DNA from: a virus
IMG/VR virus record: IMGVR_UViG_3300031949_000005
Coordinates: 1-64,000 of that record
Direction: 5' to 3' (one strand)
DNA: 64,000 nucleotides
The notes under the pieces are model-generated. The model was not told where the DNA came from, searched no databases, and saw only the letters and a list, made by a program, of their open reading frames with translations. Made by a program: the position numbers and the translations under genes. Shown here in pieces: positions 5,881 through 55,674 of this stretch. How positions within the stretch are numbered: position 1 is the stretch's first letter; the number at the start of each line of letters is the position of its first letter.

Positions 5881-6206
5881 TATCTATTATCCCCATATCC
5901 ATGCAATTTATTTCTAGATTTTCTATCTAATAATTTGGTAATATTACCAACGGCTATATCTTCGAGATTCAAATTTAAATCTAGGGCTAAATTAGCTATG
6001 TACCAGAGAACATCTCCAAGTTCTTTTTTTATTTCTTCTCTATCAGCGTCGGTCATTTCATTATTTTTATCTCTAATAATTTTTTTAATTTTTTCTGCTA
6101 CTTCTCCCGACTCCCCACATAGACCGAGACAGGGATATATAATTTTATAATTATCATTATATGTAGCTGTTTGCCTAGCTAATAATTGATATTCATTAAA
6201 TTCCAT
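5880..6206 (-). CDS. mazG: MazG-like NTP pyrophosphohydrolase
   Basis: GLCGESGEVAEKIKK...KELGDVLWY. Confidence 0.9.
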   Translation of the reverse strand: MEFNEYQLLARQTATYNDNYKIIYPCLGLCGESGEVAEKIKKIIRDKNNEMTDADREEIKKELGDVLWYIANLALDLNLNLEDIAVGNITKLLDRKSRNKLHGYGDNR

Positions 6207-8205: not shown

Positions 8206-9091
8206 TTATATTTTCCAAATTCAATTGATAATATTTTGTTTTGATAAATTCGGTTCCGTATATACTTAAATCTGACCATATTTTATCACATATACCATTT
8301 TTATAAAATTGACATAATTTACATTTCCATGATTTATTTCTTAAAAATAATTTATCCTTTTTAACTTTCTGGAACCAATTCCATAACGACTGCATAGTAT
8401 ATTGGACATCCTCTATATCTAACGAAAAACTAATAGGACCACCATCTAATATATAATAAAATGTAATAATTATATTTTTATATTTTGGAAATAAATTTAT
8501 TGCTGCTATGTGATACATTCTTGCCTGAACATCGTTGATCAGCGAGTATATATCTTTGGGTTTAAATGTATAAAAATCTGATGCCTTCCCGGATTTCCAA
8601 TCTACAATTTCTATTGTATTTTCGTCTATTTCATGTATTAAATCTATTCTACCTCTATATAAAAATGGTTTATTTTGATATGTTAACCATTCATTACCAG
8701 GCATTTCTATATTAAATAAATCCTCTGTTTTTATTATTTTTAAATTATATGGATTATAATATTTATTATTTACTATCAATTCCACTGCCGTTTTACATTT
8801 TTTAAAATCAGCAGATTCCCCACGACTAGTAAATCTTTTTAAGTCTATAGTAGGATTAGCTTTTGTATATAAATCCCATGAACGATTCAATAACCATAGA
8901 GGATCTACATTGGTTTTATTTTTTAATTTTAATCTGGACATCCATTCAAATACTTGATGAATAATTGTCCCCTGTAAGGCCGTTTTACTTCCACCGGATG
9001 TTTTAATTTTTAAAACATCTTCCATATAGAATTTAAATGCGCAGTGATTATAACTTGCAACTGCACTAGGAGATGCTCTGGTTACTTCCAT
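8198..9091 (-). CDS. PD-(D/E)XK nuclease, RecB/Cas4-like
   Basis: GTIIH, GRIDLI, IVDWKSG, QARMY; Cys pattern C...CKLC..C. Confidence 0.85.
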   Translation of the reverse strand: MEVTRASPSAVASYNHCAFKFYMEDVLKIKTSGGSKTALQGTIIHQVFEWMSRLKLKNKTNVDPLWLLNRSWDLYTKANPTIDLKRFTSRGESADFKKCKTAVELIVNNKYYNPYNLKIIKTEDLFNIEMPGNEWLTYQNKPFLYRGRIDLIHEIDENTIEIVDWKSGKASDFYTFKPKDIYSLINDVQARMYHIAAINLFPKYKNIIITFYYILDGGPISFSLDIEDVQYTMQSLWNWFQKVKKDKLFLRNKSWKCKLCQFYKNGICDKIWSDLSIYGTEFIKTKYYQLNLENINV

Positions 9092-19007: not shown

Positions 19008-20186
19008 CTATTCCAAAAAAATCGGGCATTGAACGGTCCTTCCATACTTACTCGACATCAGGAACATAAATTGTTGGGGTTTCTCGAAAGCCGCCTTTAT
19101 AGATACTGCATATGGAGAGTAACCAACAATAGACCCATTTATAATGAACTTATCGCTAGAGATTAATTGATGCCAGTGCCCGAAAATATCTAAGTAGGCG
19201 CGCTGCGCACGATCCCATTGAGCAATTGCCCGATTGACGGGGACGCATACGCCTCCTATACCACCTGCGTAACGAATGTTGTCTCCATGATGAAAACGTA
19301 AGTCATACCCATAAATATTCAACCAATTAAAATAACCTTTTGATAATTTGAAATTAACTATCTCAGATTTTTCATATTTATTAGCCAGAAAATTATAAAT
19401 TAACCACTCATATGAGTTTTCACAAGCTGTAGAAATCCTTCTTTTTTCTGTGGTACGACCATGGTTCCCAATACTTGGGACCACTATTATTTTTTCAAAG
19501 CCTCCATGCTCAACAAGAAAGTCTATAGCAGAAACGCATAATTTGAATACTTCTATGGATGCCTCTATGGCCGAAATTTCATTATTTTCTTTTAGTTCAT
19601 CGTGTATACCACCATTTATGAGATCACCGCCCAACCATACAACGCATTGTTTTATTGTGGTTCCATGTCTATTTATTTCTACAAGCTTAAGTACATTTTG
19701 AAATAATTTTTGGAATCTTTGGGTTGCAATTTTAGGATTATATTCATTTAGGTTGTCTACTTTGTTTGGATCTATTACGTCCTCGTAGTGCAAATCACTG
19801 CACAAAATTACTGCGGTGCTTTCAGATGCTTTTGTGTATTGTGATATTTTAATTTTTTCATATTCTGTCTTTTGTAATCGTTCGTCAAATAATTCTATGG
19901 TATTAAAACGACTAGATTGATTATCAAAAAGACGAAGAAGTTCATCGTATTTTTTTTGTAATTCTCTTTTGTCTTTTACTACTGATTTCAGTTTAGAATC
20001 AAGTCCTATTTCTTGCTCTGGACTTAATTGTGGGGTTCCAGCTATGTATCCACGATCAATTGCTTTATTATATCTTGTACTTAGTGTTTTTCTAGGAATT
20101 TTTAATGCCTTGGCCGCTGCCGCAATAGAGCCATATTTATTTACGCTGTCTATTGATTGTTGTAATATATTATTTTCATTACTCAC
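19008..20186 (-). CDS. HTH + calcineurin-like metallophosphoesterase
   Basis: GSIAAAAKALKIPRKTL; SDLH, GGD, GNHGR, HHGD, GHWH. Confidence 0.82.
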   Translation of the reverse strand: MSNENNILQQSIDSVNKYGSIAAAAKALKIPRKTLSTRYNKAIDRGYIAGTPQLSPEQEIGLDSKLKSVVKDKRELQKKYDELLRLFDNQSSRFNTIELFDERLQKTEYEKIKISQYTKASESTAVILCSDLHYEDVIDPNKVDNLNEYNPKIATQRFQKLFQNVLKLVEINRHGTTIKQCVVWLGGDLINGGIHDELKENNEISAIEASIEVFKLCVSAIDFLVEHGGFEKIIVVPSIGNHGRTTEKRRISTACENSYEWLIYNFLANKYEKSEIVNFKLSKGYFNWLNIYGYDLRFHHGDNIRYAGGIGGVCVPVNRAIAQWDRAQRAYLDIFGHWHQLISSDKFIINGSIVGYSPYAVSIKAAFEKPQQFMFLMSSKYGRTVQCPIFLE

Positions 20187-23125
20187 TATAGATCACACTT
20201 TCCATTTGGACATGAATTATCGGTTGCTTCTAATTTGCATTTATCTATATATTTTTTAGCATCTTTCAATTCTAATGCCATTAATGGGCTTTCTCCCTTG
20301 CTTCCTTCTCTATATACGGTGATTCCCTTTAAATTTTCTATATTTTTTCTTATTAAAGAAGATAATTCTTTTGACTCAAAATCATTCGGCAAATTAATTG
20401 TTTTACTAATAGCATTATCAATATGTTTTTGACATATTATCTGCATTTTTATATGAGATTCTGGTGATATCTCATGAGATCCCTGGAAATGAGATATATT
20501 TTTATTTGCTTTAATAAATTCTGCTAATAAAGGAGCTATAACTATTTCAAAATCTTTTTCTCTTTGATTAGAGTTTATTTTATGTCTATTAAAATTTCTT
20601 CTATATACTGGTGCAAACATCGGTTCTATACCAGAACTACATCCAGCCACGATGGAAGTTGTACCAGTCGGAGGAACATTAAGTAATGCACAATTTCTTA
20701 TACCGTGTTGTAATATTCTTCTTTTTAAGTAAGGTGGCAACGATGATTTACAAAAGCCGCTTTTAATAAAGGCTTCTCTGTCTAGGGATGGAAATTGACC
20801 TTTTTCTAGCGATAGAAATATAGATGCTTCATATGCTCTTTTTTTAATAAACTCCATTATTTTATCAATTATTTGATAAGATTCTTTTGAATCATACTTG
20901 AATCCTAGTTTAAGTACCATATCATGGAGACCCATAATACCTAGTCCTATTCGCCGATGATTATTGCATACCCGTTCTATTTCTTTAAGAGGAAAATGAT
21001 TTTGTGTTAAAACATTATCTAGAAATCTAACTGCTAAATGTATAGTTTCATCAAGCATATCCCAATTTATTTCATTTTCGCTAATATGTGTTGATAAAAT
21101 AATTGATCCTAAACAACAACAATCAAATGGGCTTAACCATATTTCGCCGCAAGGATTTGTGGAAATCAATTCTTCTATATAATAAATATTATTTTGTTTA
21201 TTAGCGAATCCAATATTAAGAATACCAGGATCTCCCGATTTTAAAGAATTGGCTACTATCTTATCCCATAAATCTGTTGATTTAATTTTAGAAAATTCTT
21301 TTCCATGCCATTTAAAAACTATATCTTCTTCTTTGTCTAATAATTTGAGAAAATCATCATCTATGCATACGGAAATATTCGCATTATTTAATTGTCCCTT
21401 GTCTAGCTTTACCTCTAAGAATTCTGGTATATCTGGATGATTCCAATTTAAACAAAACATTAATGCGCTTCTTCTGGAGCCACCGGCTCTTAATTCTTCA
21501 CATGCCGCATTAATCATTCTCATTAACGATACCGAACCAGTAGAATGTCCGCCGGTCCCTCTTATTTCCGCACCTCGTGGTCTTACTTTAGAAAAATTAA
21601 TTCCTACACCACCTTCTGTGCCAGAGATAATAATTACATTTCTAAGAGTTTCTCCCCATCCCTCTCTGTGATCAATTTCATCTTCTATGACAAAACAATT
21701 TTTGCAGACTATTCCCATTACCTGAAGTGTATGATTTTCTTCTACTGATATATCAAAAACTTCATCATTATAATATATTTCTTTTATTCCTTCAACTCTT
21801 TTCCATTTATGGATATCTAAATCAAAAGGTTTAGAGCCATTAAGTATATTAAGAAATTTTTGAAAATTATTGTTAATAGAACATTGTTTGCTAAATAATA
21901 TTGAATACGGAACAGAATAACGATCTTCTCTTGTTTTTGAGGTTTTAAGACTATAGGATATTTCTAACTTATTGCCCATTATAAATAATTGGGTCATTAA
22001 TGTTGGATTACACATAGTTAACAAATTAGAGTTACTTTCTATATTATGGCATCCATCCCCCCTGCATGAATAACCTATTAATGTTAGGAGATATTCTTCT
22101 GGAAGATTTAGAAACCACCAAGGTATTTTTTTAGTATTAAAAGCATCTCCTATCCAATTTAACATAAAATTATGAGCTATTCTGCTGTTTAATCTTACTT
22201 GATACCATCCAGACCAATCAGGATGATCTGGGTTATTAGGAGTATATTCCTTTATATGAACACCTTTGCCAAAAATATTTTCGGCTAATTGTTTACATTC
22301 ATTTACATAATTAATTTCATCTTTCCCAAATGTCCATATCAAAGTATCTCCATGGGATTCGGCGCATCCTTCTGATAAATAATATCCCAATAGTTTCATT
22401 AGATCTATATTTATCTCTATGGTCGCTTTAACAGGAGTAATTGTTTTGTTAATGCCTCTTGGTTTATTTTTTCCATTCTTGATCCATCTTTTCAGAGAAT
22501 TATGTTTGTATATTAAATTATCTTCTATAAATAGATTATCTTTTTCTATTGTCAGAAAATCCATTACATTGATATTTTTTGGTATATTATCTTTATCGTT
22601 GTATCCTGGTGTATATACATAATCCCCTTCTTTAATATCCTCTGCTTTTTTCCATCCATTCTGGGTATAAATTTCATGATCATTAGTGACCATCAAAATA
22701 TCATTTGGCATTCTATCTATTTGAATATTTAATAATTTTTCTTTCTTACCTTGAGAAAAATGATTAACAACTTTTTTAAACGTTCCATCTATAGTTAACA
22801 CCTCGTCTCCTATAATTATATCTTTTATTGGAATAATTCCCCTTCTACATACAACTGGAGTTTCTTTATGAAAACAATTCAATAATTGTCCCTTCGGTCT
22901 ACCACTTCCTCTCCACGTCCTACCCCCTGGGGAAAATCTATTAGTTGATAATATGTTAAAGAATTGTTCATAATATTTATTTCTTTTTTCACCTATTTCT
23001 GCATCCGCAATATATCTAGATACTCTACCACACGCCTCTTCAAAAGTTTCGTCGAGATGGATAGCATATCTATCCTTAAAAATCTGTAGAGCGAATCCTT
23101 CTGGTGTGTATTTTGGCAGCGACAT
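20186..23125 (-). CDS. nrdJ: ribonucleotide reductase, probably class II, with intein
   Basis: PGGR, NCFV, TNPCGEI, PTGT.S, SSGIEP, terminal CPNGKC; no beta subunit in window. Confidence 0.88.
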   Translation of the reverse strand: MSLPKYTPEGFALQIFKDRYAIHLDETFEEACGRVSRYIADAEIGEKRNKYYEQFFNILSTNRFSPGGRTWRGSGRPKGQLLNCFHKETPVVCRRGIIPIKDIIIGDEVLTIDGTFKKVVNHFSQGKKEKLLNIQIDRMPNDILMVTNDHEIYTQNGWKKAEDIKEGDYVYTPGYNDKDNIPKNINVMDFLTIEKDNLFIEDNLIYKHNSLKRWIKNGKNKPRGINKTITPVKATIEINIDLMKLLGYYLSEGCAESHGDTLIWTFGKDEINYVNECKQLAENIFGKGVHIKEYTPNNPDHPDWSGWYQVRLNSRIAHNFMLNWIGDAFNTKKIPWWFLNLPEEYLLTLIGYSCRGDGCHNIESNSNLLTMCNPTLMTQLFIMGNKLEISYSLKTSKTREDRYSVPYSILFSKQCSINNNFQKFLNILNGSKPFDLDIHKWKRVEGIKEIYYNDEVFDISVEENHTLQVMGIVCKNCFVIEDEIDHREGWGETLRNVIIISGTEGGVGINFSKVRPRGAEIRGTGGHSTGSVSLMRMINAACEELRAGGSRRSALMFCLNWNHPDIPEFLEVKLDKGQLNNANISVCIDDDFLKLLDKEEDIVFKWHGKEFSKIKSTDLWDKIVANSLKSGDPGILNIGFANKQNNIYYIEELISTNPCGEIWLSPFDCCCLGSIILSTHISENEINWDMLDETIHLAVRFLDNVLTQNHFPLKEIERVCNNHRRIGLGIMGLHDMVLKLGFKYDSKESYQIIDKIMEFIKKRAYEASIFLSLEKGQFPSLDREAFIKSGFCKSSLPPYLKRRILQHGIRNCALLNVPPTGTTSIVAGCSSGIEPMFAPVYRRNFNRHKINSNQREKDFEIVIAPLLAEFIKANKNISHFQGSHEISPESHIKMQIICQKHIDNAISKTINLPNDFESKELSSLIRKNIENLKGITVYREGSKGESPLMALELKDAKKYIDKCKLEATDNSCPNGKCDL
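21698..22876 (-). mobile_element. intein (393 aa) with LAGLIDADG homing endonuclease
   Basis: CFHKETPV start, VTNDH block B, LLGYYLSEG / LIGYSCRGDG, VFDISV..HT...VCKN|C. Confidence 0.9.
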
Positions 23126-36523: not shown

Positions 36524-37062
36524 TTATATATTTATATGTTTCCAAGTTCGGTTTTTATCTATATGGGATATAGCGGATTCTCCTACGTTGAAGATTTTTC
36601 CTATTTGTTTTTTAGTTTTATTATTTTGCCTAAGCATTAATTTTATCTGCATTACTTTATCTTCTGTTAGTTTCGAAAAATGATTATTTGATCCTTTTAT
36701 TATTGGTGGTTTCTTATTAGTTCCGTGTCTTATTTTGTCCTCCCAATTTTCTCTATATGTTCCCCATCTTAAATTTTCGAGATTATTATTTTGACGATTA
36801 CCATCAAGATGACGACAAGAATATCCTTTAGGTTTTGGTCCTACGAAAGACGATAATACAAGACCATGGATTCTGAATGTTTTTCCTATATTTTTTTAAA
36901 TAATTTAACAGAAATATATCCGTGTTTTTCTATATATTGAGCCAATTGTTTTATCAAAGATTTATTATGGTTTGTTTTTAAACTTCTTACTTTTCCGGTA
37001 TTAGATACCTCGTATTGATCCTCATATCCTTGAATTGATTTCCATATTTCTAATTTATCCAT
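36524..37062 (-). pseudogene. frameshifted NUMOD4-HNH endonuclease (not in ORF track)
   Basis: MDKLEIWKSIQGYEDQYEVSNTG...LFKKI*; after the A7 run near 36891-36897 another frame reads IHGLVLSSFVG..CRHLDGNRQNN..LRWGT. Confidence 0.85.
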
Positions 37063-37681: not shown

Positions 37682-38330
37682 ATATTCTCTTTTTGTATTT
37701 TTTATGTTTTCTAACAGGGGTTATTAGAGTTTTTTCTATTGACCAACCAAGTTTATCTAATCTGTCTCTTATAATATTTCTAGAAAAATTACGTTCTTCT
37801 GCCCATGCGGATCTACATTGTGTTTTATTATTAAAAGTTTCTAATTTATTGTGTCTACTGTTTCTATTTTGTGTTTTCATGGTGGTTAATCTGCAATTTT
37901 CTGGTGAATAATCGCCACCATTATTTGTTCTATCTAGAGTTAGTCCAAATGGTATTTCTCCAATATCTGTATAAAAATTCTCGAATCCTTTAGGATTTTT
38001 ATTTGACCACCTATAACAAACTTTAATTTTTCGTTTTCCGTAATATTTATAATCTTTTCGAGTTGAATCGTTACATCTATTATTCATATTTTGCCATATA
38101 TTATAAGATCTAAGATGTGAATATCCATGCTTTAAATTATTTCCCCTTTTCATTATACATCCACAGCTTCTAGTAGATCCACTTATTAAACTACTTCCTT
38201 GAATTATTTTTTGATTTCCACAGCCACAATCACATAACCACATAGCCGCCCCATAATCACTGTTTTTAACTCTTTTAACAACAGTTAATTTGTCAAATTG
38301 TTGTCCCGTTAAATCTATAAATTTGGGCAT
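37674..38330 (-). CDS. HNH endonuclease (DLTG..F..LTV family)
   Basis: WLCDCGCG, SCGC, W.NM..RC, YYG.R.I.VC, TLDR.NN. Confidence 0.82.
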   Translation of the reverse strand: MPKFIDLTGQQFDKLTVVKRVKNSDYGAAMWLCDCGCGNQKIIQGSSLISGSTRSCGCIMKRGNNLKHGYSHLRSYNIWQNMNNRCNDSTRKDYKYYGKRKIKVCYRWSNKNPKGFENFYTDIGEIPFGLTLDRTNNGGDYSPENCRLTTMKTQNRNSRHNKLETFNNKTQCRSAWAEERNFSRNIIRDRLDKLGWSIEKTLITPVRKHKKYKKRIYE

Positions 38331-38339
38331 ATCATTTTC

Positions 38340-39464
38340 TCATTCACATTCTCTTACTCTTATTCCTATTGGAAAACGTGGCAATCCATCGGTAGTAAAA
38401 TTTTGAAATTTAACAGTTAGTTGTTTACCAATAGCAATTTCCGGATCGGCCAGATATTTTTTAAGATTTTCTAGAGACCCCTCCATTTTACACGAAAATT
38501 CATGCCCATTTTTTGTCCTACACATAAATATTGCGCATGACGACATTCTCCCCCTACCTTCTTTTACACCAATTATTTCAAATTCTTCATCGGAGAACGA
38601 TTTAATTTTTTGTAGACCATAAGATCTTCCGTGCCTGTATAGGCTTTGGCTGTTCCTTACCATGCTTCCTTCATACCCTGTTTTTTTATCTATTATGAAA
38701 TAATCCATCAACTCTTCTGCACTATTTACTTTCCGCGTTTCGACTTTTACGATTTTACTACTATAATTAGATTTACCAGTAAATTTTATTTTTTGAATTT
38801 TTTCGGCTCTTTCTTCAAAAGTTAATTTGTCGTCTATTAGGTCATAAATATGATATTCGACTATCGTATGCCCATCCTTGGGTATTTGAGATCTTATAAA
38901 AGACGTTATTACTTCGAATGAATTTTTATAGTCGTGATTATATAATTCCCCATCAAGAATAATACTCTGGTTCGGGAATGTCTTTTCTATCGCATCAATA
39001 ATATGGGGAACACTGGTTATCGGTTTACGAGCGCGAGACCATAAGGTACACTTCCCATTATTTACAACACAAGCGCATCGGTGTCCATCCAATTTAGGTT
39101 GAGAATAACATGGATAGGTAATTTTAGCCTCGTGATCCCGGAACTTATGGGCAAGCATCACCTCTTCGCCGCCGACTATAAATTGCTTATCCACATTTCC
39201 TTGTCTTGCTTCTTCCTCGGTTTGACAATATCCTGATTTTAATTTTTTTTCCCATTGGGCTTGTGCTTCTAATATTGCTTGTTCTTCTGGCGTAGTTTGA
39301 TTGATTTTCCCTATATTTTTGCCATTTGTAATTGTGTCAGATGTTACTTGTATTTTACCACCTAATTTGCCATATTCTTTTATAATTGTATTTTTTTCAA
39401 CATAAATTGTCCATTGCTGGATAGAACCATCGCTATTTAATGAATATAATGTATTTTTTTTCAT
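38340..39464 (-). CDS. ATP-dependent DNA ligase
   Basis: QPKLDGHR, LDGELY, YEGSMVR, KIK, PRFP. Confidence 0.92.
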   Translation of the reverse strand: MKKNTLYSLNSDGSIQQWTIYVEKNTIIKEYGKLGGKIQVTSDTITNGKNIGKINQTTPEEQAILEAQAQWEKKLKSGYCQTEEEARQGNVDKQFIVGGEEVMLAHKFRDHEAKITYPCYSQPKLDGHRCACVVNNGKCTLWSRARKPITSVPHIIDAIEKTFPNQSIILDGELYNHDYKNSFEVITSFIRSQIPKDGHTIVEYHIYDLIDDKLTFEERAEKIQKIKFTGKSNYSSKIVKVETRKVNSAEELMDYFIIDKKTGYEGSMVRNSQSLYRHGRSYGLQKIKSFSDEEFEIIGVKEGRGRMSSCAIFMCRTKNGHEFSCKMEGSLENLKKYLADPEIAIGKQLTVKFQNFTTDGLPRFPIGIRVRECE

Positions 39465-39469
39465 TTATT

Positions 39470-39676
39470 TCATAATCCTAAAAGGTGTTTACCATCTCTA
39501 AGTTCAAAAGAATTATCTCCAATGAATTCTTCTATACTCATACCAATAAGTGTAGAATCTTTTAAATAAGTTGTTGCCCTCATCTTGAATATAGGAAAAA
39601 TTCCTTCTTCACAAACATCTATTCCACAACAAAAACAATCTTTATCGAATAAAAGTTCTACAGTCCTATTTTTCAT
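39470..39676 (-). CDS. hypothetical protein
   Basis: Tiles. Confidence 0.5.
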   Translation of the reverse strand: MKNRTVELLFDKDCFCCGIDVCEEGIFPIFKMRATTYLKDSTLIGMSIEEFIGDNSFELRDGKHLLGL

Positions 39677-39876
39677 TATTTGTCTCCTATCTTTTGACGG
39701 TTTGCTCTTTTGATTTTTGTGTTATATTCTTTTTTCTTAGAGATGTTTTTAGTATCCCCTAGGGCTTCATTTATTTCTTTAATAAAATTTTCACATTCAC
39801 TGCCAGAAAATTCATGACCATCTATTAAACAATCACCATTTTCATCAATGATAATTTCTATTCTCTTATGATTCAT
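39676..39876 (-). CDS. DUF2997-like protein
   Basis: IEIIIDENG...FSGSEC....EALG.....KKEY. Confidence 0.75.
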   Translation of the reverse strand: MNHKRIEIIIDENGDCLIDGHEFSGSECENFIKEINEALGDTKNISKKKEYNTKIKRANRQKIGDK

Positions 39877-40489
39877 TAGCCTGCTCCTCTAATACCTCAA
39901 GCCATCCAGGCATAGCCTTACTTATGTTATAAGATTCCATTACCCTATTAATTAAATCAAACACTGTTGCAATATCACCTTCATAAAATGCCCTTTCGGC
40001 TATATCATCAGCATTGCCCATACAAATAGAACCATCACCAACGTGTGGGTGTGGGCATGCTTCATCAATTGATTTTAATGCATCAGCCACAAATGCGAAC
40101 TCCGATTCAAGCACTATTCCAGCTCTGAATTTACCTACTTTAATATTATCAAATTCAAGAGATTTTGTTAATATAGTAAGTTCATTAGTTTCTTCATCAA
40201 AATTCAAACTTCTAAATTTACGTTTAGTTTGTTTTAAACTTTTTTCTATATTATCGACGGAAGGTTTATAAAGTTCTTTTGCTAAATTAAGATTATTAAA
40301 TGAGTCACGAATTGATTGAAATCTTATTTGTACATCATTGGGTAATTTTTTCCCAGAACATAAAGTATCTAGTTTTAATAATTTTGGTTTTATAAATGTT
40401 TTATATGAGTTAATAATATTTTTAATATATTCTTGATTATTTGATTCTATTATTTCGTAAATTATCTCAGCAACTTTCTTATTATTCAC
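39866..40489 (-). CDS. stand-alone E2 (UBC-fold)-like protein, paralog of 53332..54540
   Basis: PHPHVGDGSICMGN...AFYEG.I...FD.I. Confidence 0.72.
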   Translation of the reverse strand: MNNKKVAEIIYEIIESNNQEYIKNIINSYKTFIKPKLLKLDTLCSGKKLPNDVQIRFQSIRDSFNNLNLAKELYKPSVDNIEKSLKQTKRKFRSLNFDEETNELTILTKSLEFDNIKVGKFRAGIVLESEFAFVADALKSIDEACPHPHVGDGSICMGNADDIAERAFYEGDIATVFDLINRVMESYNISKAMPGWLEVLEEQANES

Positions 40490-40949
40490 ATATTTCTCCT
40501 AATTTATTATTAACTTCTGTGATTAACATACTTCTTCCTTCATCGCAATCCTCTGAGTAACAACCAACATATGCCTTTCCTTTATTTGTATATAATTTAC
40601 CTCCAAAACCAAGTATACCACCAAATCTGAATTCGTTACACTTATCATAATTTTTTCTATAAAAATCTATGAAACTATATTCAAGAGATTGATGAGCACC
40701 ACATTGGTTTTTAAGGATTCGCCATATTTCTCTCTCTTTACGACTAGTTCTACTATCAAAATATCTTTTAAGATTTTCTAATTCCAATTTCATGTGACAT
40801 AATATTATACTGGACAATATTGATTCTTTATTTTCGAAATATGTTATTATAATCTTAGCCGATTCGATAGCGTCAAATAATTCTTCATCAGAAATAAACA
40901 TCTTAGACGAAGCTTTTGCACCATTTATTATTTGTTCCAATTTAATCAT
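40482..40949 (-). CDS. hypothetical protein
   Basis: EFRFGG.LGFGGK motif; AGGAG upstream. Confidence 0.6.
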   Translation of the reverse strand: MIKLEQIINGAKASSKMFISDEELFDAIESAKIIITYFENKESILSSIILCHMKLELENLKRYFDSRTSRKEREIWRILKNQCGAHQSLEYSFIDFYRKNYDKCNEFRFGGILGFGGKLYTNKGKAYVGCYSEDCDEGRSMLITEVNNKLGEICE

Positions 40950-40990
40950 TTTATTCTCCTTGAGAATTTAATTTTTCTAGTTGGATAGTG

Positions 40991-41353
40991 TTATAAACAC
41001 TCTATTTTCCCGCTATTTGTCGTATAAATAACTTTTACATTATAACGAGAGAGTAGTTTTTGACATTTTAGACATGGTTTTGCTAAACAAATTCCATTCG
41101 ATGATATCCTGAACACAAAAATTGTTATATTATTAAATCTATGAAAAGCTTTTAATTTATTTAATTTTTTTATTATTGCTTGTTCTGCGTGGAGACTCCA
41201 CCTTATATAATCTCCCTGTAGTCTGCGATTATTAGCGGAACATATTACTCTTCCGTTCTTGGTAATAGCAATACAACTCATCCTGGCTTTTATTATATCG
41301 CTTTTTATTGCAATTTTTCTAGCTATTGAAATATGTTTATCCGTTATTATCAT
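40991..41353 (-). CDS. cytidine-deaminase-fold protein
   Basis: LHAE...AKPCLKC. Confidence 0.8.
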   Translation of the reverse strand: MIITDKHISIARKIAIKSDIIKARMSCIAITKNGRVICSANNRRLQGDYIRWSLHAEQAIIKKLNKLKAFHRFNNITIFVFRISSNGICLAKPCLKCQKLLSRYNVKVIYTTNSGKIECL

Positions 41354-41365
41354 TTATTGTTTCCA

Positions 41366-41884
41366 TCAAATATAATACCATGTTCTTTTGGCATGAATAT
41401 CGCATATATTAGATACACTTACGTTGAAAATTTTCGCAATATTTGGCTTTGATATTTCACTATTTTTTAAAAGATATTTTATTATTCTGACTTGTTTTTC
41501 GTTAAGTTTTGCGCGGTTATTATTAGAACCCTTCCTGTTGGAAATAGTGCCATGTCTTATCATATCTTTTATATTTTCTTTATGTGTACCCCACTTTAAA
41601 TTTTTCAAATTATTATTTTGTCTGTTACCATCTAAATGTCTACATTCCATTTTATCTGGGCAGGGACCGACAAATGCTTCTAAAACCAGTCTATGTATCA
41701 TAAAACTTTTACCAATATTATTTCTATGTAGTTTTACGGCTATATATCCATCTGATCTTATGGATTTAGTGTTTCTATTAATTGATTTATTATAATTATC
41801 CTTAATCCTTTTAACATTACCTAAATTAGATACTTGGTAAAATTCTTTGTAGTTGATAATATCTTTCCATATCTCGTTATTCAT
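41366..41884 (-). CDS. NUMOD4-HNH homing endonuclease
   Basis: EIWKDI..YQVSNLG; IHRLVLEAFVG..CRHLDGN..NN. Confidence 0.9.
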   Translation of the reverse strand: MNNEIWKDIINYKEFYQVSNLGNVKRIKDNYNKSINRNTKSIRSDGYIAVKLHRNNIGKSFMIHRLVLEAFVGPCPDKMECRHLDGNRQNNNLKNLKWGTHKENIKDMIRHGTISNRKGSNNNRAKLNEKQVRIIKYLLKNSEISKPNIAKIFNVSVSNICDIHAKRTWYYI

Positions 41885-42558
41885 ATATTTTTTTCTTCTT
41901 ATTAAATTTGCAATTATTCTTATAAGCTTCCCATATTTTGGTTCTTAACTCTTTATTTGCTAATCCAGACACCTTCATTATGCTCAAAACATCAACTAGA
42001 GCCAATTTTCTACCAGTTATCTTACAAAAATTATCAGATGGATTTACTACAGCAATTCCTTCGAATACATCTTCTGGATCTCCAAATTGGTCATTTCTAT
42101 TAAATATTTCTATTTGAGCGATAGAACAAAGTCTACTATCGTCTTGTCTTGACAAATAACCGTATGGAATAATAAAACCATATTGGCCATTTAATTCATC
42201 AATAGGAATATTCTTATGATCGAATTTGATAACAAAATTATGGTCCCCATGTTCTACTTTAATCGCCATTTAATTTCTCCAATTCTTTTTTATAATAATC
42301 GAGTGTTTTTCTATGAAATTTAATTTTATCTTTTACTAATCTTTTATATCGTTTTAAAGCATTGTTATATTTTCTATAGACTAATCCTCTTATCGAATAA
42401 GCATAATAAGTATTAATGTCCTTATAAAAATTACAGCTTTTTTGGGATATTCCAGACCATTCAGACAAATAACGACATTTAGTTTTTACTATTCCGGATT
42501 CACCGACTAAAAAATATACATTTCTTTCCTTCATTTTTATTCCATCACTTGTTTTCAT
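41877..42558 (-). other. two hypothetical CDS (41877-42269, 42259-42558)
   Basis: Tile; first has a P.DNF.K..GRK.AL motif. Confidence 0.55.
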
Positions 42559-42820
42559 TGTAATATTTACCTCCTGGTTGCATGTTTTCTATTTCAAATT
42601 CTATGCATTTTTCTCGACTTTTATGAGAAAATATATCAATAACTAATCCTGGCATAATATTAGGAATTCTCACAACCCATTCTTGATTATCTTCATTGAA
42701 TTCTATATTAGACGCTCTATGTATATTATATATATCGCCCACATCTTGTAAAAATAATTCATCATCATATATTGTTTTTAAATTACCGTCATTATCTATT
42801 TCTATTGTCCTAGTTATCAT
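42545..42820 (-). CDS. small conserved protein
   Basis: IEIDNDG..TIYDD.L.L..VG...I.RASNIEF....EW; start moved to MITRT. Confidence 0.6.
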   Translation of the reverse strand: MITRTIEIDNDGNLKTIYDDELFLQDVGDIYNIHRASNIEFNEDNQEWVVRIPNIMPGLVIDIFSHKSREKCIEFEIENMQPGGKYYNENK

Positions 42821-42995
42821 CTGGACCCTCTTCTTGGATATGATCAAATTGTGGTTCGACAAAATTATTATGGGCATCACACAAATGATCAAAATCTCCG
42901 TTATTAAACTTTTCTTCGGCTTCGTTTTCATTATTTGCTTCAACCAAAAAATCACCTGTTATATTTGAAAACCAAAATATTCTGTAAGCTTTCAT
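42810..42995 (-). CDS. hypothetical protein
   Basis: VEANNENEAEE motif; tiles. Confidence 0.55.
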   Translation of the reverse strand: MKAYRIFWFSNITGDFLVEANNENEAEEKFNNGDFDHLCDAHNNFVEPQFDHIQEEGPDDN

Positions 42996-42997
42996 TT

Positions 42998-43987
42998 TTA
43001 TATCCTTATGAATTCACAATTCTGTTTGAAATCATTTATATTATTGAATCCGGAGTAAGAAATTCCTGAACGCAAAGCACCGGCATATCTTTTTAATAAA
43101 GCTTCTAATGGTTCTCCTATTGGTAATAAAACTGTTCTTCCCTCCGGGCAATCATTGTGAACTTTACCCCTATATTTCTCTTGCACGGCCTTACTACTCA
43201 TACCTTGATAAATTTTCTTTTCTACTCCATTTATTTCAACGATTTCTGCTGCGCTTTCTGGACACCTAGCGAACACTGATCCACACATAGCGCTAGACGC
43301 ACCCGCCCCTATGGCTTTGACGAAATCTGAAGGTTCTTTAATATTACCATCTGATATTAATGGTATATTCATACCTTGATTTTTAAAATCAAATATTGCA
43401 CTCCATTGGTTTTTTGTGCAACCGGCGGTCAATGCAGTCGAACAACCTAATCCACCTCCTATGCCGACCTTAATCGCATCCGGCCATATATTTTTACTTG
43501 CCTTTTCAATATCATCTAAAATACCTGGGTTAACAACATTACCAATAATAACTTTAATATTATCATATTGGCCCTTTATTTGATAACATAGATTCAAAAC
43601 TCTATCACACCAACCATGGGCCACGTCTATATTTATTACATTAACGCCCAATGAAATTAATTTTTGCGCGAAAGAGAATTGATTTTCTGAGATACCTATT
43701 GATGCACCAATCCATTTACAACCATGATTTTTAACCTTTATTATTTCCTCAAATATATATTTATCTGTTCCCGCTCGATGCATTACGCCAAACGCACCGA
43801 TGTCCCAAAGCTTATTAATAAAATCGGCATTAACTACTGTTGACATGTTGCTGGCAATAATCGGTATGGGTCTTATGACACCTTTTATAATTTCTGATTC
43901 TATATTTATTTCCGATCTGGAATTAACTATACATTTTCGTTGTAAAATTGCAATATCTTGAAATCCTAAAGATTTTTCTAAATTCAT
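42998..43987 (-). CDS. GMP reductase / IMP dehydrogenase family
   Basis: SNMSTV, IDVAHG, KVGIGGGLGCST, YQGMSS, LRSGISY. Confidence 0.9.
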   Translation of the reverse strand: MNLEKSLGFQDIAILQRKCIVNSRSEINIESEIIKGVIRPIPIIASNMSTVVNADFINKLWDIGAFGVMHRAGTDKYIFEEIIKVKNHGCKWIGASIGISENQFSFAQKLISLGVNVINIDVAHGWCDRVLNLCYQIKGQYDNIKVIIGNVVNPGILDDIEKASKNIWPDAIKVGIGGGLGCSTALTAGCTKNQWSAIFDFKNQGMNIPLISDGNIKEPSDFVKAIGAGASSAMCGSVFARCPESAAEIVEINGVEKKIYQGMSSKAVQEKYRGKVHNDCPEGRTVLLPIGEPLEALLKRYAGALRSGISYSGFNNINDFKQNCEFIRI

Positions 43988-44596: not shown

Positions 44597-45025
44597 TTAT
44601 CTTATATCTTGAATTATTATTCTTTGGTTGCCATTATTTAATTTTTCTCTTTTTATTGTTCTACCTTTTTTCCCTTGTCTATTTTTTATAACATAATAAC
44701 AATAATTTTGTTTGAGTTGCCCTACCCACGATTCACTGTAGTAGGATCTATCGTATTCTGATATTATAGCAACGAATTCACCATTTTCATTACGAACAAA
44801 TCCAATATCATTAGAGGCGCTTCCAACGTTTTGTCTACGTATAATTATATTAGCCTTTTCTTTTCTTTTATCTCCTTGATATCCTATCATGTTTTGAGGT
44901 ACTTCATGAATCTCTATATCTTGTAATGTAAAAAATCTACCATTTGCATTTTTACATTCTAGTAGTGCCTTTATTAATGCTTCTTGGTCTTTGAATTTTG
45001 TCTGGACGCTACAATATAAACTCAT
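44597..45025 (-). CDS. DUF1257-like protein
   Basis: TKFKD..ALIKAL, GYQGD.R...A.III.R, SNDIGF, IISEYD. Confidence 0.78.
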   Translation of the reverse strand: MSLYCSVQTKFKDQEALIKALLECKNANGRFFTLQDIEIHEVPQNMIGYQGDKRKEKANIIIRRQNVGSASNDIGFVRNENGEFVAIISEYDRSYYSESWVGQLKQNYCYYVIKNRQGKKGRTIKREKLNNGNQRIIIQDIR

Positions 45026-46318: not shown

Positions 46319-47299
46319 TTATATAGTAATCCTTCTTTTCAAGCTATTAATAAATTGACTTTCATTATTTAAATCACTCGCAGCTTTTTCACGGATTGAT
46401 TTTAGAGAATTCGTTACGCTGCTAGCCATATTTGAATTATCAAAATCTTTCACCGCGATTCCAATTGGAAGGAATTGATCCTTAAATTCTGATAACATCT
46501 TCTCAATTTCGTTATCTTCGAATATATTCATTTGCTTAAATTTATTGACATATTTACCGAAATAAGCTAACGATCTAGCCGTTAATTTTTTAGCTTCCGT
46601 TTCATCTCCATACGGACGATTATTTACTCGTGCGCTCATTAGTTCGCAAAATCTTATTGTTTCCGTTCTCATAGAAGAAACGTATTCTTGCACGAAGCTT
46701 TCTACTTCACTTGTTAATTGTTTTCTTAATTCGGTATTTTTAATTTGTTTCTTTTCATCTTCTTCTACTATTTTCATTATATTAGTTTCTTGAATCGAAT
46801 CTATACCAGCTACTTTAAAAATATGCCAGGAGAATCTGAAATTTGATCTTAGTAATCCTGGTGTTCGCGGATAATGATTTTTTAAACAACGATCCCAGAA
46901 TTCAGGATGTGCTTTTTGTACTTCTTTTTTCATATCCTCGAACCTAGCAATGAATGAATCGACCTTCCCAAAGAATTCTTTTTTAATTTCTGTCAAAAAT
47001 TGGTCTACGTTTGGTAACATTTTCATAGGAACAAAGTGTGCTGAAGCCATCCCAAATGGAACCGAATAGCTCGCCAGATAGGCTCTAGCCCTTTGTTCAA
47101 GTTGGCTTATAATTTTAAGCTCTGACTTTGGCACCAAGAGCTTACGGCCTAAATTACATAAATCATTTGGTAATTCATCCGGATTCAAACCGACAAGTTT
47201 AAAATCTTCTCTAGTTAACATTTTGCGACCCGACCAACAACTTATAGAGAGATTAACAAGAGCGCCTACATCGAAAAGATTAATTGTTTTGTCGTTCAT
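46319..47299 (-). CDS. DUF3150-like helical protein
   Basis: V.L.I..WSGRK.L..ED, LG.K.L, RA..L...S.PF. Confidence 0.6.
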   Translation of the reverse strand: MNDKTINLFDVGALVNLSISCWSGRKMLTREDFKLVGLNPDELPNDLCNLGRKLLVPKSELKIISQLEQRARAYLASYSVPFGMASAHFVPMKMLPNVDQFLTEIKKEFFGKVDSFIARFEDMKKEVQKAHPEFWDRCLKNHYPRTPGLLRSNFRFSWHIFKVAGIDSIQETNIMKIVEEDEKKQIKNTELRKQLTSEVESFVQEYVSSMRTETIRFCELMSARVNNRPYGDETEAKKLTARSLAYFGKYVNKFKQMNIFEDNEIEKMLSEFKDQFLPIGIAVKDFDNSNMASSVTNSLKSIREKAASDLNNESQFINSLKRRITI

Positions 47300-47549: not shown

Positions 47550-49091
47550 TTATTTCTCCATTCTAACAGACCTTTTATTTACGGGGACTTTAATCTCTGT
47601 TTGATTCGCCTTTTTTGCTCTTACATCAATCCATTGTTGGATTATTTTAATTCTTTCTGGCTCCGCTTTGGACAAAGGCAGAATTCCATCTACCGCTGTT
47701 AATAGATGATTATTATCCAATTCTTGTGATTGGGCAAAAGCTATTTTTAATCCTAATTTGACAGCTTGCTCTATATCGGCTCCTGTAAATCCTTGGCTAG
47801 CCTTCACCAATTCGTTTAATTTGTATTTCTTAATATCTCTATTTCTTTTCTTTATATGTATTTCCCATATTTGCAACCTTTCTTGTTCATTTGGTAAATC
47901 TAGACCAAAAATTTCATCTAACCTTCCTTTACGACAAAATTCTGGAGGTAAATTTTCCACATTATTTGCTGTGCATACAAAATAAACAGGAGATGTTCTG
48001 TCATTCATCCATGATAGCATCGTTCCTAATACTCTCGCAGATGTACCGCCATCTAAATCTCCTTTAGTAGAAAATCCCTTCTCTATTTCGTCTAGCTGTA
48101 AAACGCATGGAGCTATACTTTCTATAATTTTTATAGCTTCACGAATATTAGCCTCTGAGTCTCCCACGTATTTAGACATTAAACTTCCAACGTCCATAGA
48201 TATTAACGGCATTTCAAATTCAGAAGCTATCGCTAGACTAAGGGCTGTTTTACCTGTTCCTGGAACACCTGCCAACATAATGCCTTTTGGAAAATCTATA
48301 CCGAAATCTTTTGCTTCTTTGGAGAAGCATGGTTTATCTAATTTGATATAATTTTTAACTGGTTCATATCCCCCTATGAGTGATAAACCGCCTGGCGGTG
48401 ATTCAATATATCTTAACAAGCCAGACGATTTGAGAATATTCGCCTTTTCATTTATTATAGTTTTCACTGCATCGTGATCTAATTTCTTATGTTTAGTAAT
48501 AGATAAAGCCACTTTATCTACTATTTGTTGACAAGTCATACCACGACAAGCGCTCACAACTAATGGTAAAATTGATTCGTCTAGAGTAAATTTATCTTTA
48601 TCCACTCCCTCGCAAACGAATCGAATATGATTTTCTATATCTTCGTCAGGAAGAGGAAAATCAATTTCAGTTACATCATATTTAAGAGAATCTGGCAACT
48701 TAGCGCATCCGTCTATAATTATTAGTATATTTTTTGAAGCCGACAAGTTTTCCTTTATTTCATGCATCCACGAAATTATTACATCGGCTGATGTATATTT
48801 TTCTATGTCTAAATAATGGCCAAATTCTTCAAGAACTATAATATTGTTCTCGTCTAGGCCAGATATATATTGTATAGCAGCCTCTGGAGTTTGTTCTATT
48901 TGCTCTCCTATAGGTTTACCGTCTATGGATTTCCATCCGGCTGCAATAGACCAAGATTGGATTTGTGAATTAATTTTTTCTGCGATTTTTGATATTTGGG
49001 ATATACATCTTTTAATTTCATGCGTTCTGATTAATAAAATAGCATGACCGCTTAGTATATAATCTGTTATATTGTCTTTAAAAGAGTTCAT
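47550..49091 (-). CDS. Ycf46-like AAA+ ATPase
   Basis: Degenerate N-terminal AAA; GVPGTGKT, SKYVGDSE, LDEIEK, TAN..LPPE..RKGRLDE. Confidence 0.88.
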   Translation of the reverse strand: MNSFKDNITDYILSGHAILLIRTHEIKRCISQISKIAEKINSQIQSWSIAAGWKSIDGKPIGEQIEQTPEAAIQYISGLDENNIIVLEEFGHYLDIEKYTSADVIISWMHEIKENLSASKNILIIIDGCAKLPDSLKYDVTEIDFPLPDEDIENHIRFVCEGVDKDKFTLDESILPLVVSACRGMTCQQIVDKVALSITKHKKLDHDAVKTIINEKANILKSSGLLRYIESPPGGLSLIGGYEPVKNYIKLDKPCFSKEAKDFGIDFPKGIMLAGVPGTGKTALSLAIASEFEMPLISMDVGSLMSKYVGDSEANIREAIKIIESIAPCVLQLDEIEKGFSTKGDLDGGTSARVLGTMLSWMNDRTSPVYFVCTANNVENLPPEFCRKGRLDEIFGLDLPNEQERLQIWEIHIKKRNRDIKKYKLNELVKASQGFTGADIEQAVKLGLKIAFAQSQELDNNHLLTAVDGILPLSKAEPERIKIIQQWIDVRAKKANQTEIKVPVNKRSVRMEK

Positions 49092-51743: not shown

Positions 51744-52415
51744 TTACGATCCCATTGCCGACATTTCATTGGTAAGTATATTTATAGATATTTCAAAATC
51801 AAGCGGAATTCCGCGAAGCCATTTCGTTAACTGACTTATCATTAGCCCAGCCATCATATTAGAATTATAAATTGTACTCTTTGCAGTGCATGAACCCCTA
51901 AATGCTTCTTCTGGCGGAAAAATCTTTGTTAGATATTTTTCTCTCGACTGGTCGTCAAATGTACTATAAATTCTTCCGGATTCCGCCGCCATCCTGCCAT
52001 CAATAAATAGTTGACATCGTTTTCCTACTGAATTAAAAATTTGCTTACGAGTTTCTATTGAATCTACACAACAAAATATAACAGAAGTATCTATAAATTC
52101 ACTGTTTTTAAATTTCTTATTATTCTTAATGATCTTAACAGAACTATTGATTTTAGAACAAAAATCTGCTACCGCATTTACTTTGGATTTTCCCATATCG
52201 CTTTCTAGAAAACCTTGTGGCGCTAGATTTTCTTCTTCTACGCTATCGAAATCAGTTAGATGAATAATAGGAACACCAATAGCTGCTGCTTGTATTGCTA
52301 CCTGTCTACCTATAGCACCTACTCCTATGATACTAATATCTACTAACTTAATCTTATCCCCTGGCACTAAATCTGATTGTCTTACGAATCTTTTTTCAAA
52401 CATTTCATACTCCAA
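51744..52415 (-). CDS. E1-like (ThiF/MoeB) activating enzyme
   Basis: RFVRQ, IIGVGAIG, DFDSVEEENL..Q, K, CVD...R, DGRM, GSCTAKST. Confidence 0.9.
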   Translation of the reverse strand: MEYEMFEKRFVRQSDLVPGDKIKLVDISIIGVGAIGRQVAIQAAAIGVPIIHLTDFDSVEEENLAPQGFLESDMGKSKVNAVADFCSKINSSVKIIKNNKKFKNSEFIDTSVIFCCVDSIETRKQIFNSVGKRCQLFIDGRMAAESGRIYSTFDDQSREKYLTKIFPPEEAFRGSCTAKSTIYNSNMMAGLMISQLTKWLRGIPLDFEISINILTNEMSAMGS

Positions 52416-53325
52416 TTAAAGACACTGGTTCGTTCTTCTCTATCCATTTATGGATACGTTCTATTATTTCTCCATTAGTATTAGTACAGTCATCTTCTGT
52501 ATCATCATTAATTAAGGTTTGATTTTCGACATCAAATTTATACATGATTCCCAACTCATCGTTCTCGCCATTGTTTTCCCAACAATATATATATTTCCCA
52601 CTACTTGAAGCATATATATCCCCATCATCATCTTCGTCGTCGTTTAGATCATTGATAATATCATCATATCGTTTATTTATGTTTTCTTCCGTATAGCCAC
52701 TTTTCGTGTAATCAAGTATTTCGCCAGTATTTTCGTCAAACCATACAGACGAACCTTTACTGTTCTTATTATTAATTATTATTATTGGCTTGGTTTTTGT
52801 CACCTTGTCTTTATATTCTTTATCCCATTCTTGGTGATTGCTTCCAACAAACGGAATAGAATAATCTACACAATAATCTAATAGAACCTCTGTACCTGGT
52901 CCAACGTTATATCGTAGCCTAGCATAAGTATCACCTTGTTTGGCTAATATAAAAAATATCGCCCAATGTGGATGACTAAAAGCTTTGTCGAAATTTTGTT
53001 CATCTGTACCACTTGGCTTGGCACAATTACCGGGATGGGTATGCCAAAATATATTCTGATGCATCCATGGACTTAATCCCTTATCTGTCATTTTTTCCAT
53101 AAAATCCGCCATATCTTGTTTATCAAAGTCTATGGTACATGGCGTACATTCTTGTTTTATTAAACATATATCTGTGACAAGTAACGGATCTTCGGTTTCG
53201 CATATTCCATAACCGCCAACTTCTGTTGGACCAATATCTCGAAAATACAACATTTTCGCCCATGAGTGGGGCGTAAATCTTAAAACACTATCTCTTGTTA
53301 ATTTCGGTTTAATAAATCCCATCAT
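52405..53325 (-). CDS. JAB/JAMM metallo-isopeptidase with acidic tail
   Basis: TEVGG and HTH-x7-S-x2-D (WHTHPGNCAKPSGTD). Confidence 0.88.
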   Translation of the reverse strand: MMGFIKPKLTRDSVLRFTPHSWAKMLYFRDIGPTEVGGYGICETEDPLLVTDICLIKQECTPCTIDFDKQDMADFMEKMTDKGLSPWMHQNIFWHTHPGNCAKPSGTDEQNFDKAFSHPHWAIFFILAKQGDTYARLRYNVGPGTEVLLDYCVDYSIPFVGSNHQEWDKEYKDKVTKTKPIIIINNKNSKGSSVWFDENTGEILDYTKSGYTEENINKRYDDIINDLNDDEDDDGDIYASSSGKYIYCWENNGENDELGIMYKFDVENQTLINDDTEDDCTNTNGEIIERIHKWIEKNEPVSLIGV

Positions 53326-54631: not shown

Positions 54632-54871
54632 TTAAAGTATGACTGCACCCTCCACCTTAGTTGGCGTGAGACTGATGCGATCCCCATCCTCAAGGACGTA
54701 ATCACAATCTACGACCTCGGAATGTCCATCGCTCGATCGCACCTTGATGTCGAAATCATCGACATTGCCAGTGAAATTGGTGTCGAGGAACGAGCCAACA
54801 GTGATTCCGTTGCGAACGTTCAACGCCTGGGGCATACCACTACCATCATTAGTAACCAGTGTAACTCTCAT
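54632..54871 (-). CDS. ubiquitin-like (beta-grasp) protein, 79 aa
   Basis: AAAGGAG upstream; MRVTLV...DYVLEDGDRISLTPTKVEGA-VIL*. Confidence 0.85.
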   Translation of the reverse strand: MRVTLVTNDGSGMPQALNVRNGITVGSFLDTNFTGNVDDFDIKVRSSDGHSEVVDCDYVLEDGDRISLTPTKVEGAVIL

Positions 54872-55137: not shown

Positions 55138-55674
55138 TCATGGTATATGCTTCCATATTTTCCCTTTATTTATAGAACATATTGTATGGTTACTTATTTT
55201 GAAAATTTCTGCAATTTGCATTTGGTTTAAAATACCATAATTTAATAATTTTTTAATAATTTTAACTTGATTTTCATTTAATTTAGCATAACCATTTTTT
55301 GATCCTTTTGTATCATTTTTAGGGGGTAGTGTAAAAGTTCCATGACTTTTCTTGTCTAATTGATTTTCGCTTTTAGTTCCCCATTTTAAATTATCTAATT
55401 TATTATTATGTCTATTACCATCTAGGTGTCTGGTTTCCATTCCATATGGTTTTTTACCACAGAATGATTTCAAGACTAACGAATGAACGGTATATATTTT
55501 TTTTATTTTGTTTTTGCATAAATTTACTTGCAAATACCCATTTTTGTTTTTAATATTTTTTAAAATGAATTCTTTGTCTTTTTTATATCTTCCGATTAGA
55601 CTTTTAATGTTCCCTAAATTAGAAACCTTGTATAATTGCTCATATTCAGGAATATCTTTCCATATTTCTTTCAT
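55138..55674 (-). CDS. NUMOD4-HNH homing endonuclease
   Basis: EIWKDIPEYE.LYKVSNLG; VHSLVL; RHLDGN..NN..NLKWGT. Confidence 0.9.
   Translation of the reverse strand: MKEIWKDIPEYEQLYKVSNLGNIKSLIGRYKKDKEFILKNIKNKNGYLQVNLCKNKIKKIYTVHSLVLKSFCGKKPYGMETRHLDGNRHNNKLDNLKWGTKSENQLDKKSHGTFTLPPKNDTKGSKNGYAKLNENQVKIIKKLLNYGILNQMQIAEIFKISNHTICSINKGKIWKHIP

Follow-up and report, generated by a model that had tools for sequence, protein, structure and literature searches.

Why would a phage whose genome already encodes the E2-like protein of a ubiquitin-like (Ubl) conjugation operon carry a second, shorter copy of that protein, alone and far from the operon, and what might such a copy do? The question is raised by a 64,000-nucleotide (nt) stretch of viral DNA (hereafter the window), positions 1 to 64,000 of the IMG/VR virus record IMGVR_UViG_3300031949_000005, which is 167,640 bp in full and scored as 100% complete by CheckV. 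The orphan copy, here called E2b (P0001; 39866..40489, minus strand), was called as an open reading frame (ORF) and encodes 207 amino acids (aa); the operon copy, E2a (P0002; 53332..54540, minus strand), is a 402-aa protein with a Cys-rich tail of ~160 aa. From the letters alone, a preliminary description had aligned the two by eye, and it had proposed either a branched cascade, with one E1 feeding two E2s that have different targets, or a decoy E2 directed at host systems. What it observed is confirmed throughout, and what it proposed is supported in part. The analyses reported here identify E2b as a real tail-less paralog that is specific to its lineage and probably functional; it is new as a variant and known from one gene in one genome. 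The reading that we favour, at a probability of roughly 0.4, is that E2b is an active second E2 working on the same E1 and Ubl as E2a, with the thioester chemistry and the shared E1 and Ubl being what we infer.

A tail-less paralog with a predicted UBC-like core

BLASTP of E2b against E2a returned 30% identity over ~190 residues (E 2e-17), in an alignment whose first aligned residues are 5 in E2b and 7 in E2a, so that the N-terminal hairpin is included, and that covers every block previously picked out by eye (LTILTK/LYIETK, VGKFRAGI/LGRFKTGI, HPHVGDGSICMGN/HPHVKNDYICMGN and AFYEGDI/AFYQGRI, with E2b given first). At the sequence level, the paralogy between E2b and the operon E2-like protein is genuine. 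The candidate catalytic residue, Cys156, is retained, as had been described, and stands in a column that is invariant across the family, within the motif H147-P148-H149-x6-C156-x-G158 (40016..40051, minus strand; read from the DNA and the family alignment). The reported lack of a tail is borne out as well, with E2b terminating 11 residues past a conserved Trp (W196). Chance is excluded as the source of the frame: at the 30.3% GC of the window an open frame of 207 codons has a probability of about 4e-8, and the other five frames across the gene carry 6–43 stops each. The GC content of the gene itself is 29.2%, and its GTG start lies 6 nt downstream of an AGGAG ribosome-binding site.

Structurally, the full-length AlphaFold2 model of E2b (34-row alignment; predicted local distance difference test score, pLDDT, 85.4) consists of a long helical hairpin (residues 1–76; 40262..40489, minus strand; helices 3–43 and 51–68 by DSSP) that is common to the operon E2 and the family, followed by the UBC-like (ubiquitin-conjugating) core (residues 77–207; 39869..40261, minus strand), with a helix, a beta-meander, the loop bearing HPH...Cys, and three helices. 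Since a fold search with this model was dominated by generic helical hairpins, with ubiquitin E2 variant (UEV) domains also among the matches, the core was refolded alone (residues 69–207, 139 residues; 77 homologs; pLDDT 88.1). With this core, the VIA search gave UBE2S as its best match (Z 7.2, rmsd 4.1 Å; 120 of the 139 residues aligned). It found 135 chains at Z≥5, and the 50 matches listed are nearly all E2s. A wide, Foldseek-independent search (Z 6.8) found 29 chains at Z≥5, and the matches listed are E2/UEV/RWD-type domains, bacterial BubB included. Foldseek likewise placed E2s at the top, with a probability of up to 0.94, but with an E value of only 0.05. The best structural matches span 115–124 of the 139 core residues, and in the model HPH...Cys follows the last strand and precedes the next helix, where E2s carry HPN...Cys. 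Because the Z values are moderate, we call the UBC-like fold of the E2b core predicted rather than proven.

The core thus predicted shares with canonical UBC-fold E2s (Pfam UQ_con; UBE2S, Ubc13, UbcH5) a helix, a four-to-six-strand meander, an HPx loop, a Cys ~7 residues on, and three C-terminal helices. Unlike them, E2b has HPH in place of HPN, an additional N-terminal helical hairpin of ~76 aa and a phage genome as its home, matches no UQ_con or Prok-E2 Pfam profile, and superimposes on their structures with a Z of only 6–7 and an rmsd of about 4 Å. Neither E2b nor E2a is matched by any Pfam (E≤0.1), PHROG, NCBIfam or PADLOC model; the curated E2 models (UQ_con, Prok-E2_A-E, E2-CBASS) match neither of them, and no solved structure is detectable by sequence.

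The parent operon and the unnamed HPH-Cys family

The operon from which E2b presumably derives runs, entirely on the minus strand, from a presumed Ubl gene (54632..54871; 79 aa from an internal ATG) through E2a and a Prok-JAB gene for a JAB/JAMM peptidase (52405..53325; PF14464, E 3.8e-6, with PADLOC JAB models matching too) to a gene for a ThiF-type E1 of 223 aa (51744..52415; PF00899, E 2.6e-25). The Ubl, an ORF without a family match, is presumed by its position, which is that of a 74–77-aa gene upstream of the E2-like gene in five other loci (L004, L006, L010, L011 and L012), and the small upstream gene of L012 has a faint ThiS match. Profile search of the whole record found exactly two E2-family copies, 12.8 kb apart, and the genome holds exactly one ThiF-type E1, 11.3 kb from E2b. 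Beside E2b itself there is no Ubl, JAB or E1 gene (its neighbours are p155, DUF2997, p68 and a DNA ligase), and the preliminary description was right to call it an orphan about 13 kb from the operon.

In a search of profile against sequence carried out exhaustively (query, the N-terminal 220–240 residues of four relatives; E≤1e-3), the family to which both proteins belong comprised 2,213 clusters at 50% identity, and 34 sampled members had no relevant Pfam or NCBIfam match. Its HPH-x6-C-x-G motif is invariant in all 77 aligned members. Wherever there is enough flanking sequence, the cassette is the same: a gene of ~75 aa, then the E2-like gene and a JAB gene, in some loci DUF6573, and a ThiF gene of ~220 aa. 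A scan of GTDB with the motif returned at least 120 stretches (80 listed), and nearly all of those listed come from metagenome-assembled genomes (MAGs) of Planctomycetota, several of them multi-copy. Rather than occurring mainly in genomes that lack an E1 and a Ubl, the family has a ThiF-type E1 0.35–3 kb downstream in 17 of the 20 GTDB copies whose downstream sequence extends for at least 3.5 kb. The Ubl-E2-JAB-E1 cassette in which the family supplies the E2 is widespread and mobile, and in bacteria it is found mostly in Planctomycetota. A shape search of the ESM Atlas also retrieved a cluster of 2,546 members, mostly from Planctomycetota, at a TM score of 0.81.

The parent cassette resembles the Type I/II BilABCD antiphage systems, of which BilB is the E2, in its operon logic (Ubl, E2, JAB peptidase, E1) and in a UBC-related fold with a catalytic Cys. 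BilB, however, carries a Cys...His (CEHH) signature, has no HPN-like motif and is without the C-terminal helices (PMC10557695), and its Cys-then-His order contrasts with the HPH that precedes the Cys in E2b (PMC10557695). The E1 here is of a minimal ThiF type with a weak BilD match (PADLOC, E 1.7e-5), whereas BilD is a much larger IAD-AAD-CYS E1, and the PADLOC models, those for BilB included, matched none of E2b, E2a and three other family members. With its HPx-Cys motif and C-terminal helices, the HPH-Cys family looks closer to canonical E2s than BilB is.

E2b shares with the other members of the family, in phages (P0002, P0003) and on mobile elements of Planctomycetota, homology throughout hairpin and core and all invariant residues, and it groups with the phage members; it departs from them in having no adjoining Ubl, JAB or E1 and no Cys-rich tail. 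The tail is otherwise the rule. Among 71 GTDB copies, 66 have at least eight Cys after the core and four have fewer than four, and 136 of the best 150 of the 2,213 family matches carry the tail. Many short members (230–250 aa) resemble fragments or frameshifts in that they end directly behind the first CxxC, and tail-less examples were taken from long contigs only. Three of these (P0174, P0190, P0198) are the E2 of complete Ubl-E2-JAB-ThiF operons, and because such natural tail-less members are the sole E2 of their operons, the tail would appear not to be required for the core reaction. Tail-less E2-like proteins may also be common in phages. In the ESM Atlas, a cluster of 335 members of 258 aa, mostly viral (Uroviricota), matches 138 residues of the E2b core at a TM score of 0.78.

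Three copies of the E2-like gene (L069, L075, L105) lie on one chromosome of a Gemmatales MAG, a multi-copy occurrence consistent with a proliferating mobile element, and one match falls in an archaeal MAG of Nitrososphaerota (L088). In L004 (GCA_964542055.1), a group II intron reverse transcriptase (6001–9063; RVT_N, RVT_1, GIIM) immediately follows a tail-less E2-like gene and separates it from the JAB and ThiF genes, and the intron may have cut off the tail of that E2-like protein. A 733-aa protein, P0005, is twice the usual length and has two stretches that match the E2 profile, a possible tandem double E2. In phmmer it gives the best match of E2b (52 bits).

Origin, divergence and possible function of E2b

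E2b reaches 42–52 bits in phmmer comparisons with many family members and 91 bits against the 77-sequence family profile (short bacterial members reach up to 188), and it is ~32% identical to its nearest relative. Among the 77 rows it diverges most, with 18 of the 37 columns that are conserved at ≥80% (median 35), followed by E2a with 26, and it keeps 11 of the 15 columns conserved at ≥95% (median 15). Nevertheless, all eight columns that are invariant in the 77 members are retained: G119, F121, H147, P148, H149, C156, G158 and Y187. A maximum-likelihood tree built from 75 core domains puts E2b in a 17-row clade (Shimodaira–Hasegawa-like approximate likelihood ratio test, SH-aLRT, 97) that also holds E2a and the E2s from three related phage records. 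Within it, E2b belongs to a triplet with E2a and P0048 (SH-aLRT 91), on a terminal branch of 1.62 (median 0.47) that was flagged as long and is the longest among close members. Constraining E2b and E2a to be sisters gave a log-likelihood 20.8 units above that of the free quick search (approximately unbiased test, p-AU 0.725). Because E2b groups with its own operon E2, and its gene matches the window in GC content, duplication within the phage lineage is the best-supported origin, and we infer duplication rather than import. The related phage records (G003, G004, G005) each contain one tail-bearing E2 and an E1, with no second copy by profile search of the whole record, and each of them spans the entire stretch between operon and ligase. 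That E2b is a true UBC-like paralog specific to this lineage is, in our judgement, highly probable.

The tree also bears on whether E2b could be a decoy or inhibitor, soaking up host E1~Ubl or blocking the E2 partners of host systems of the same family. The family is common and multi-copy on bacterial mobile elements, mainly in Planctomycetota; Bil, a group of related Ubl systems, is active against phages (PMC10557695), and a copy that lacks the tail but has its active site intact could sequester a thioester unproductively. E2b, however, groups with phage E2s and not with bacterial ones, and host-protein mimicry is not evident, because its score against the family profile is 91 bits, against up to 188 for short bacterial members. 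Moreover, an antiphage role of the HPH-Cys family is itself putative, and the phage has a GC content of 30%. The decoy proposed in the preliminary description is distinctly improbable.

Under the reading that we favour, the operon E2-like gene would have been duplicated within the phage lineage, and the copy would have lost the C-terminal Cys-rich tail, which is probably zinc-binding and target-selecting. Very rapid divergence would then have followed, with the hairpin, the UBC-like core and the HPH-x6-Cys site preserved by selection. The single ThiF-type E1 would activate the JAB-trimmed Ubl and serve both E2s with it, E2b accepting it at Cys156, and the tail-less E2b would deliver the Ubl to a different set of targets or by way of a different adaptor. 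Complex prediction for E1 and E2b scored 0.01, which is not evidence either way.

Several observations weigh against this reading. Two conserved residues are exchanged in E2b, R172 (98% conserved) for D and D175 (92% conserved) for T, and the conserved PNPA loop ahead of the HPH motif is deleted; together these changes could disable docking of the E1 or the Ubl. The sister pairing is between E2b and E2a, which diverge more than any other rows of the alignment, one of them on a long branch, and for that reason long-branch attraction is possible. The three related phage records are only 49–77% complete. Finally, no ortholog of E2b was found: a word search of 5.8 billion proteins returned only E2b itself, and there was none among the best 150 matches of the exhaustive search.

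The same losses lend some weight to a regulatory role, in which E2b would act on its own cascade as a tail-less competitor, binding E1~Ubl or pairing with E2a through the hairpin, and so buffer, time or cap conjugation, either as a dominant negative or in the manner of Ubc13-Mms2. E2b has the hairpin and core of E2a without the presumed target-binding tail, the near-invariant R172 and D175 are gone from it, as is the PNPA loop, and pairing between E2s has a precedent in the bacterial BilB proteins, which are reported to homodimerise (PMC10557695). UEV pseudo-E2s (Mms2/Uev1 with Ubc13; Tsg101) are comparable in being a second, divergent UBC-fold paralog beside an active E2. These classical inactive partners have, however, lost the catalytic Cys, whereas E2b retains Cys156 and the full HPH motif, and related phages do without E2b altogether. 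We consider a regulator unlikely.

Could E2b instead be a functionless relic of duplication or insertion that has not yet decayed? It is a singleton with no ortholog found, is absent from relatives, is the most divergent member of the family, and lies in a rearranged stretch adjoining a homing-endonuclease gene of the HNH type. The gene has nevertheless passed through a branch of 1.62 substitutions per site at 30% GC without a stop in its 207 codons, has kept eight of eight invariant residues at ~32% overall identity, yields a confident fold prediction, follows a good ribosome-binding site and overlaps the gene on either side; a relic is thus improbable. Because the frame is open, the invariant residues have survived a long branch, the fold is confidently predicted and both gene junctions are overlapped, the sequence argues for a function that has been maintained rather than decayed, presumably under selection. 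A tblastn search of 50,697 GenBank phage records with E2b and E2a gave no match.

The DUF2997 neighbourhood and the wider meaning

The genes in the E2b part of the window are all on the minus strand. Downstream of E2b lies a 66-aa DUF2997 gene (39676..39876, minus strand), which matches PF11211 above the gathering cut-off (E 8.9e-6, 25.9 bits, cut-off 24.1) and proved single-copy in a six-frame search of the whole genome (25.6 bits). As read from the DNA, the TAA stop of E2b (39866–39868) lies 8 nt past the ATG (39876) of this gene, which is preceded by GAGGAG, and the two genes overlap by 11 bp (39866..39876, minus strand). Upstream, the stop of p155 (155 aa; 40482..40949, minus strand), a protein with no family match, overlaps the start of E2b by 8 bp. 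On the other side of DUF2997 follows p68 (68 aa; 39470..39676, minus strand), an ORFan whose ATG overlaps the DUF2997 stop (TAATG) and which has no Pfam, PHROG or NCBIfam match, and then the ATP-dependent DNA ligase gene. The C-terminus of p68 (...LLGL) suggested a hidden second Ubl; this candidate was rejected, there being no BLASTP similarity to the operon Ubl and no homolog after DUF2997 in relatives. A scan of 38000–43200 for promoters and terminators revealed nothing above background. The protein p155 consists of an N-terminal extension of ~70 aa fused to a domain of ~85 aa, the latter homologous to stand-alone ORFs of ~90 aa downstream of DUF2997 in two relatives (L016, L017), with 22 invariant positions between them, among them the runs FxDFY, LGxGxK and ED.

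The adjacent ligase gave access to relatives of the neighbourhood, recovering 36 IMG/VR loci, the five closest of which (L013–L017) have 59–76% ligase identity. In these five, DUF2997 lies upstream of the ligase and E2b is not detectable; the gene upstream of DUF2997 is a homolog of p136 in L014 and L015 and a homolog of p130 in L016, with other ORFs in L017 and L013. Compared with L016, where the p130 homolog is directly upstream of DUF2997, the phage that carries E2b has an HNH gene, a dCMP deaminase gene, p155 and E2b in between. A conserved module of E2b and DUF2997 was rejected, the five related phages carrying DUF2997 without E2b and behind different genes. The link to DUF2997 in the preliminary description therefore stands as to the overlap and the family of the neighbour, but as a local arrangement and not as a conserved pairing, because in relatives DUF2997 occurs without E2b and with other neighbours. 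Pattern scans of IMG/VR for the E2 family found only L005 and the three related phages, and a scan with the DUF2997 protein found no match.

Between the Ubl operon and E2b, and in the same orientation, lie genes for a CDC48/PAN-like AAA+ ATPase (47550..49091, minus strand; Pfam assignment), DUF3150 (46319..47299, minus strand; E 2.8e-23) and DUF1257 (44597..45025, minus strand; E 1.4e-11, single copy in the genome), which together with DUF2997 make up a dispersed Ycf46-type module interrupted by inserted genes, including a gene of the GMP-reductase/IMPDH family and an HNH gene. E2b might work with DUF2997 and this dispersed AAA+/DUF3150/DUF1257 module, linking Ubl tagging to a Cdc48/PAN-like unfoldase. 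The 11-bp overlap and the presence of the three genes on the same strand between operon and E2b would fit such a partnership; against it, the five related phages have DUF2997 without E2b and with a different gene upstream, and neither DUF2997 nor DUF1257 occurs near family members in the bacterial contexts examined, which makes it highly improbable. Extending it to a branched cascade, in which one E1 and one Ubl feed a zinc-finger-tailed E2a and a minimal E2b with different targets and E2b, co-translated with DUF2997, routes tagged proteins to a Cdc48/PAN-like AAA+/DUF1257/DUF2997 machine, is a conjecture to which we give very little credence; if true, it would be a prokaryotic-virus analogue of the ubiquitin-dependent segregase/unfoldase pathways.

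Homing endonucleases of the NUMOD4-HNH family are present in ~10 copies in the 167.6 kb of the genome. One of them (41366–41884) lies a short way upstream of the E2b block, another (55138–55674), to which it is 47% identical, a short way upstream of the Ubl operon, and a further copy (36533–37050) is interrupted by a TAA. Duplication of the E2 gene mediated by HNH was considered because of this placement upstream of both blocks and was rejected, proximity being unspecific with ~10 copies genome-wide. A 979-aa ORF resembling ribonucleotide reductase (20186–23125) seems, from its translation only, to hold a large insertion, which runs from the Cys after ...LLN to near ...VCKNC. The insertion is reminiscent of an intein that includes a homing-endonuclease domain.

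Diversification of E2s is a eukaryotic way to widen the range of targets. In a limited literature search we found no paper on a Ubl system, bacterial or phage, in which one genome encodes two E2s. Should the E1 that charges E2a also charge E2b, diversification of E2s would also arise in a viral genome, by duplication and domain loss, and E2a and E2b would form a natural pair for probing the role of the Cys-rich tail. As a single gene in a single genome, E2b carries limited weight by itself. The larger story is that of the phage operon and of the unannotated family to which it belongs, a large one of 2,213 clusters that lies outside all four profile libraries searched.

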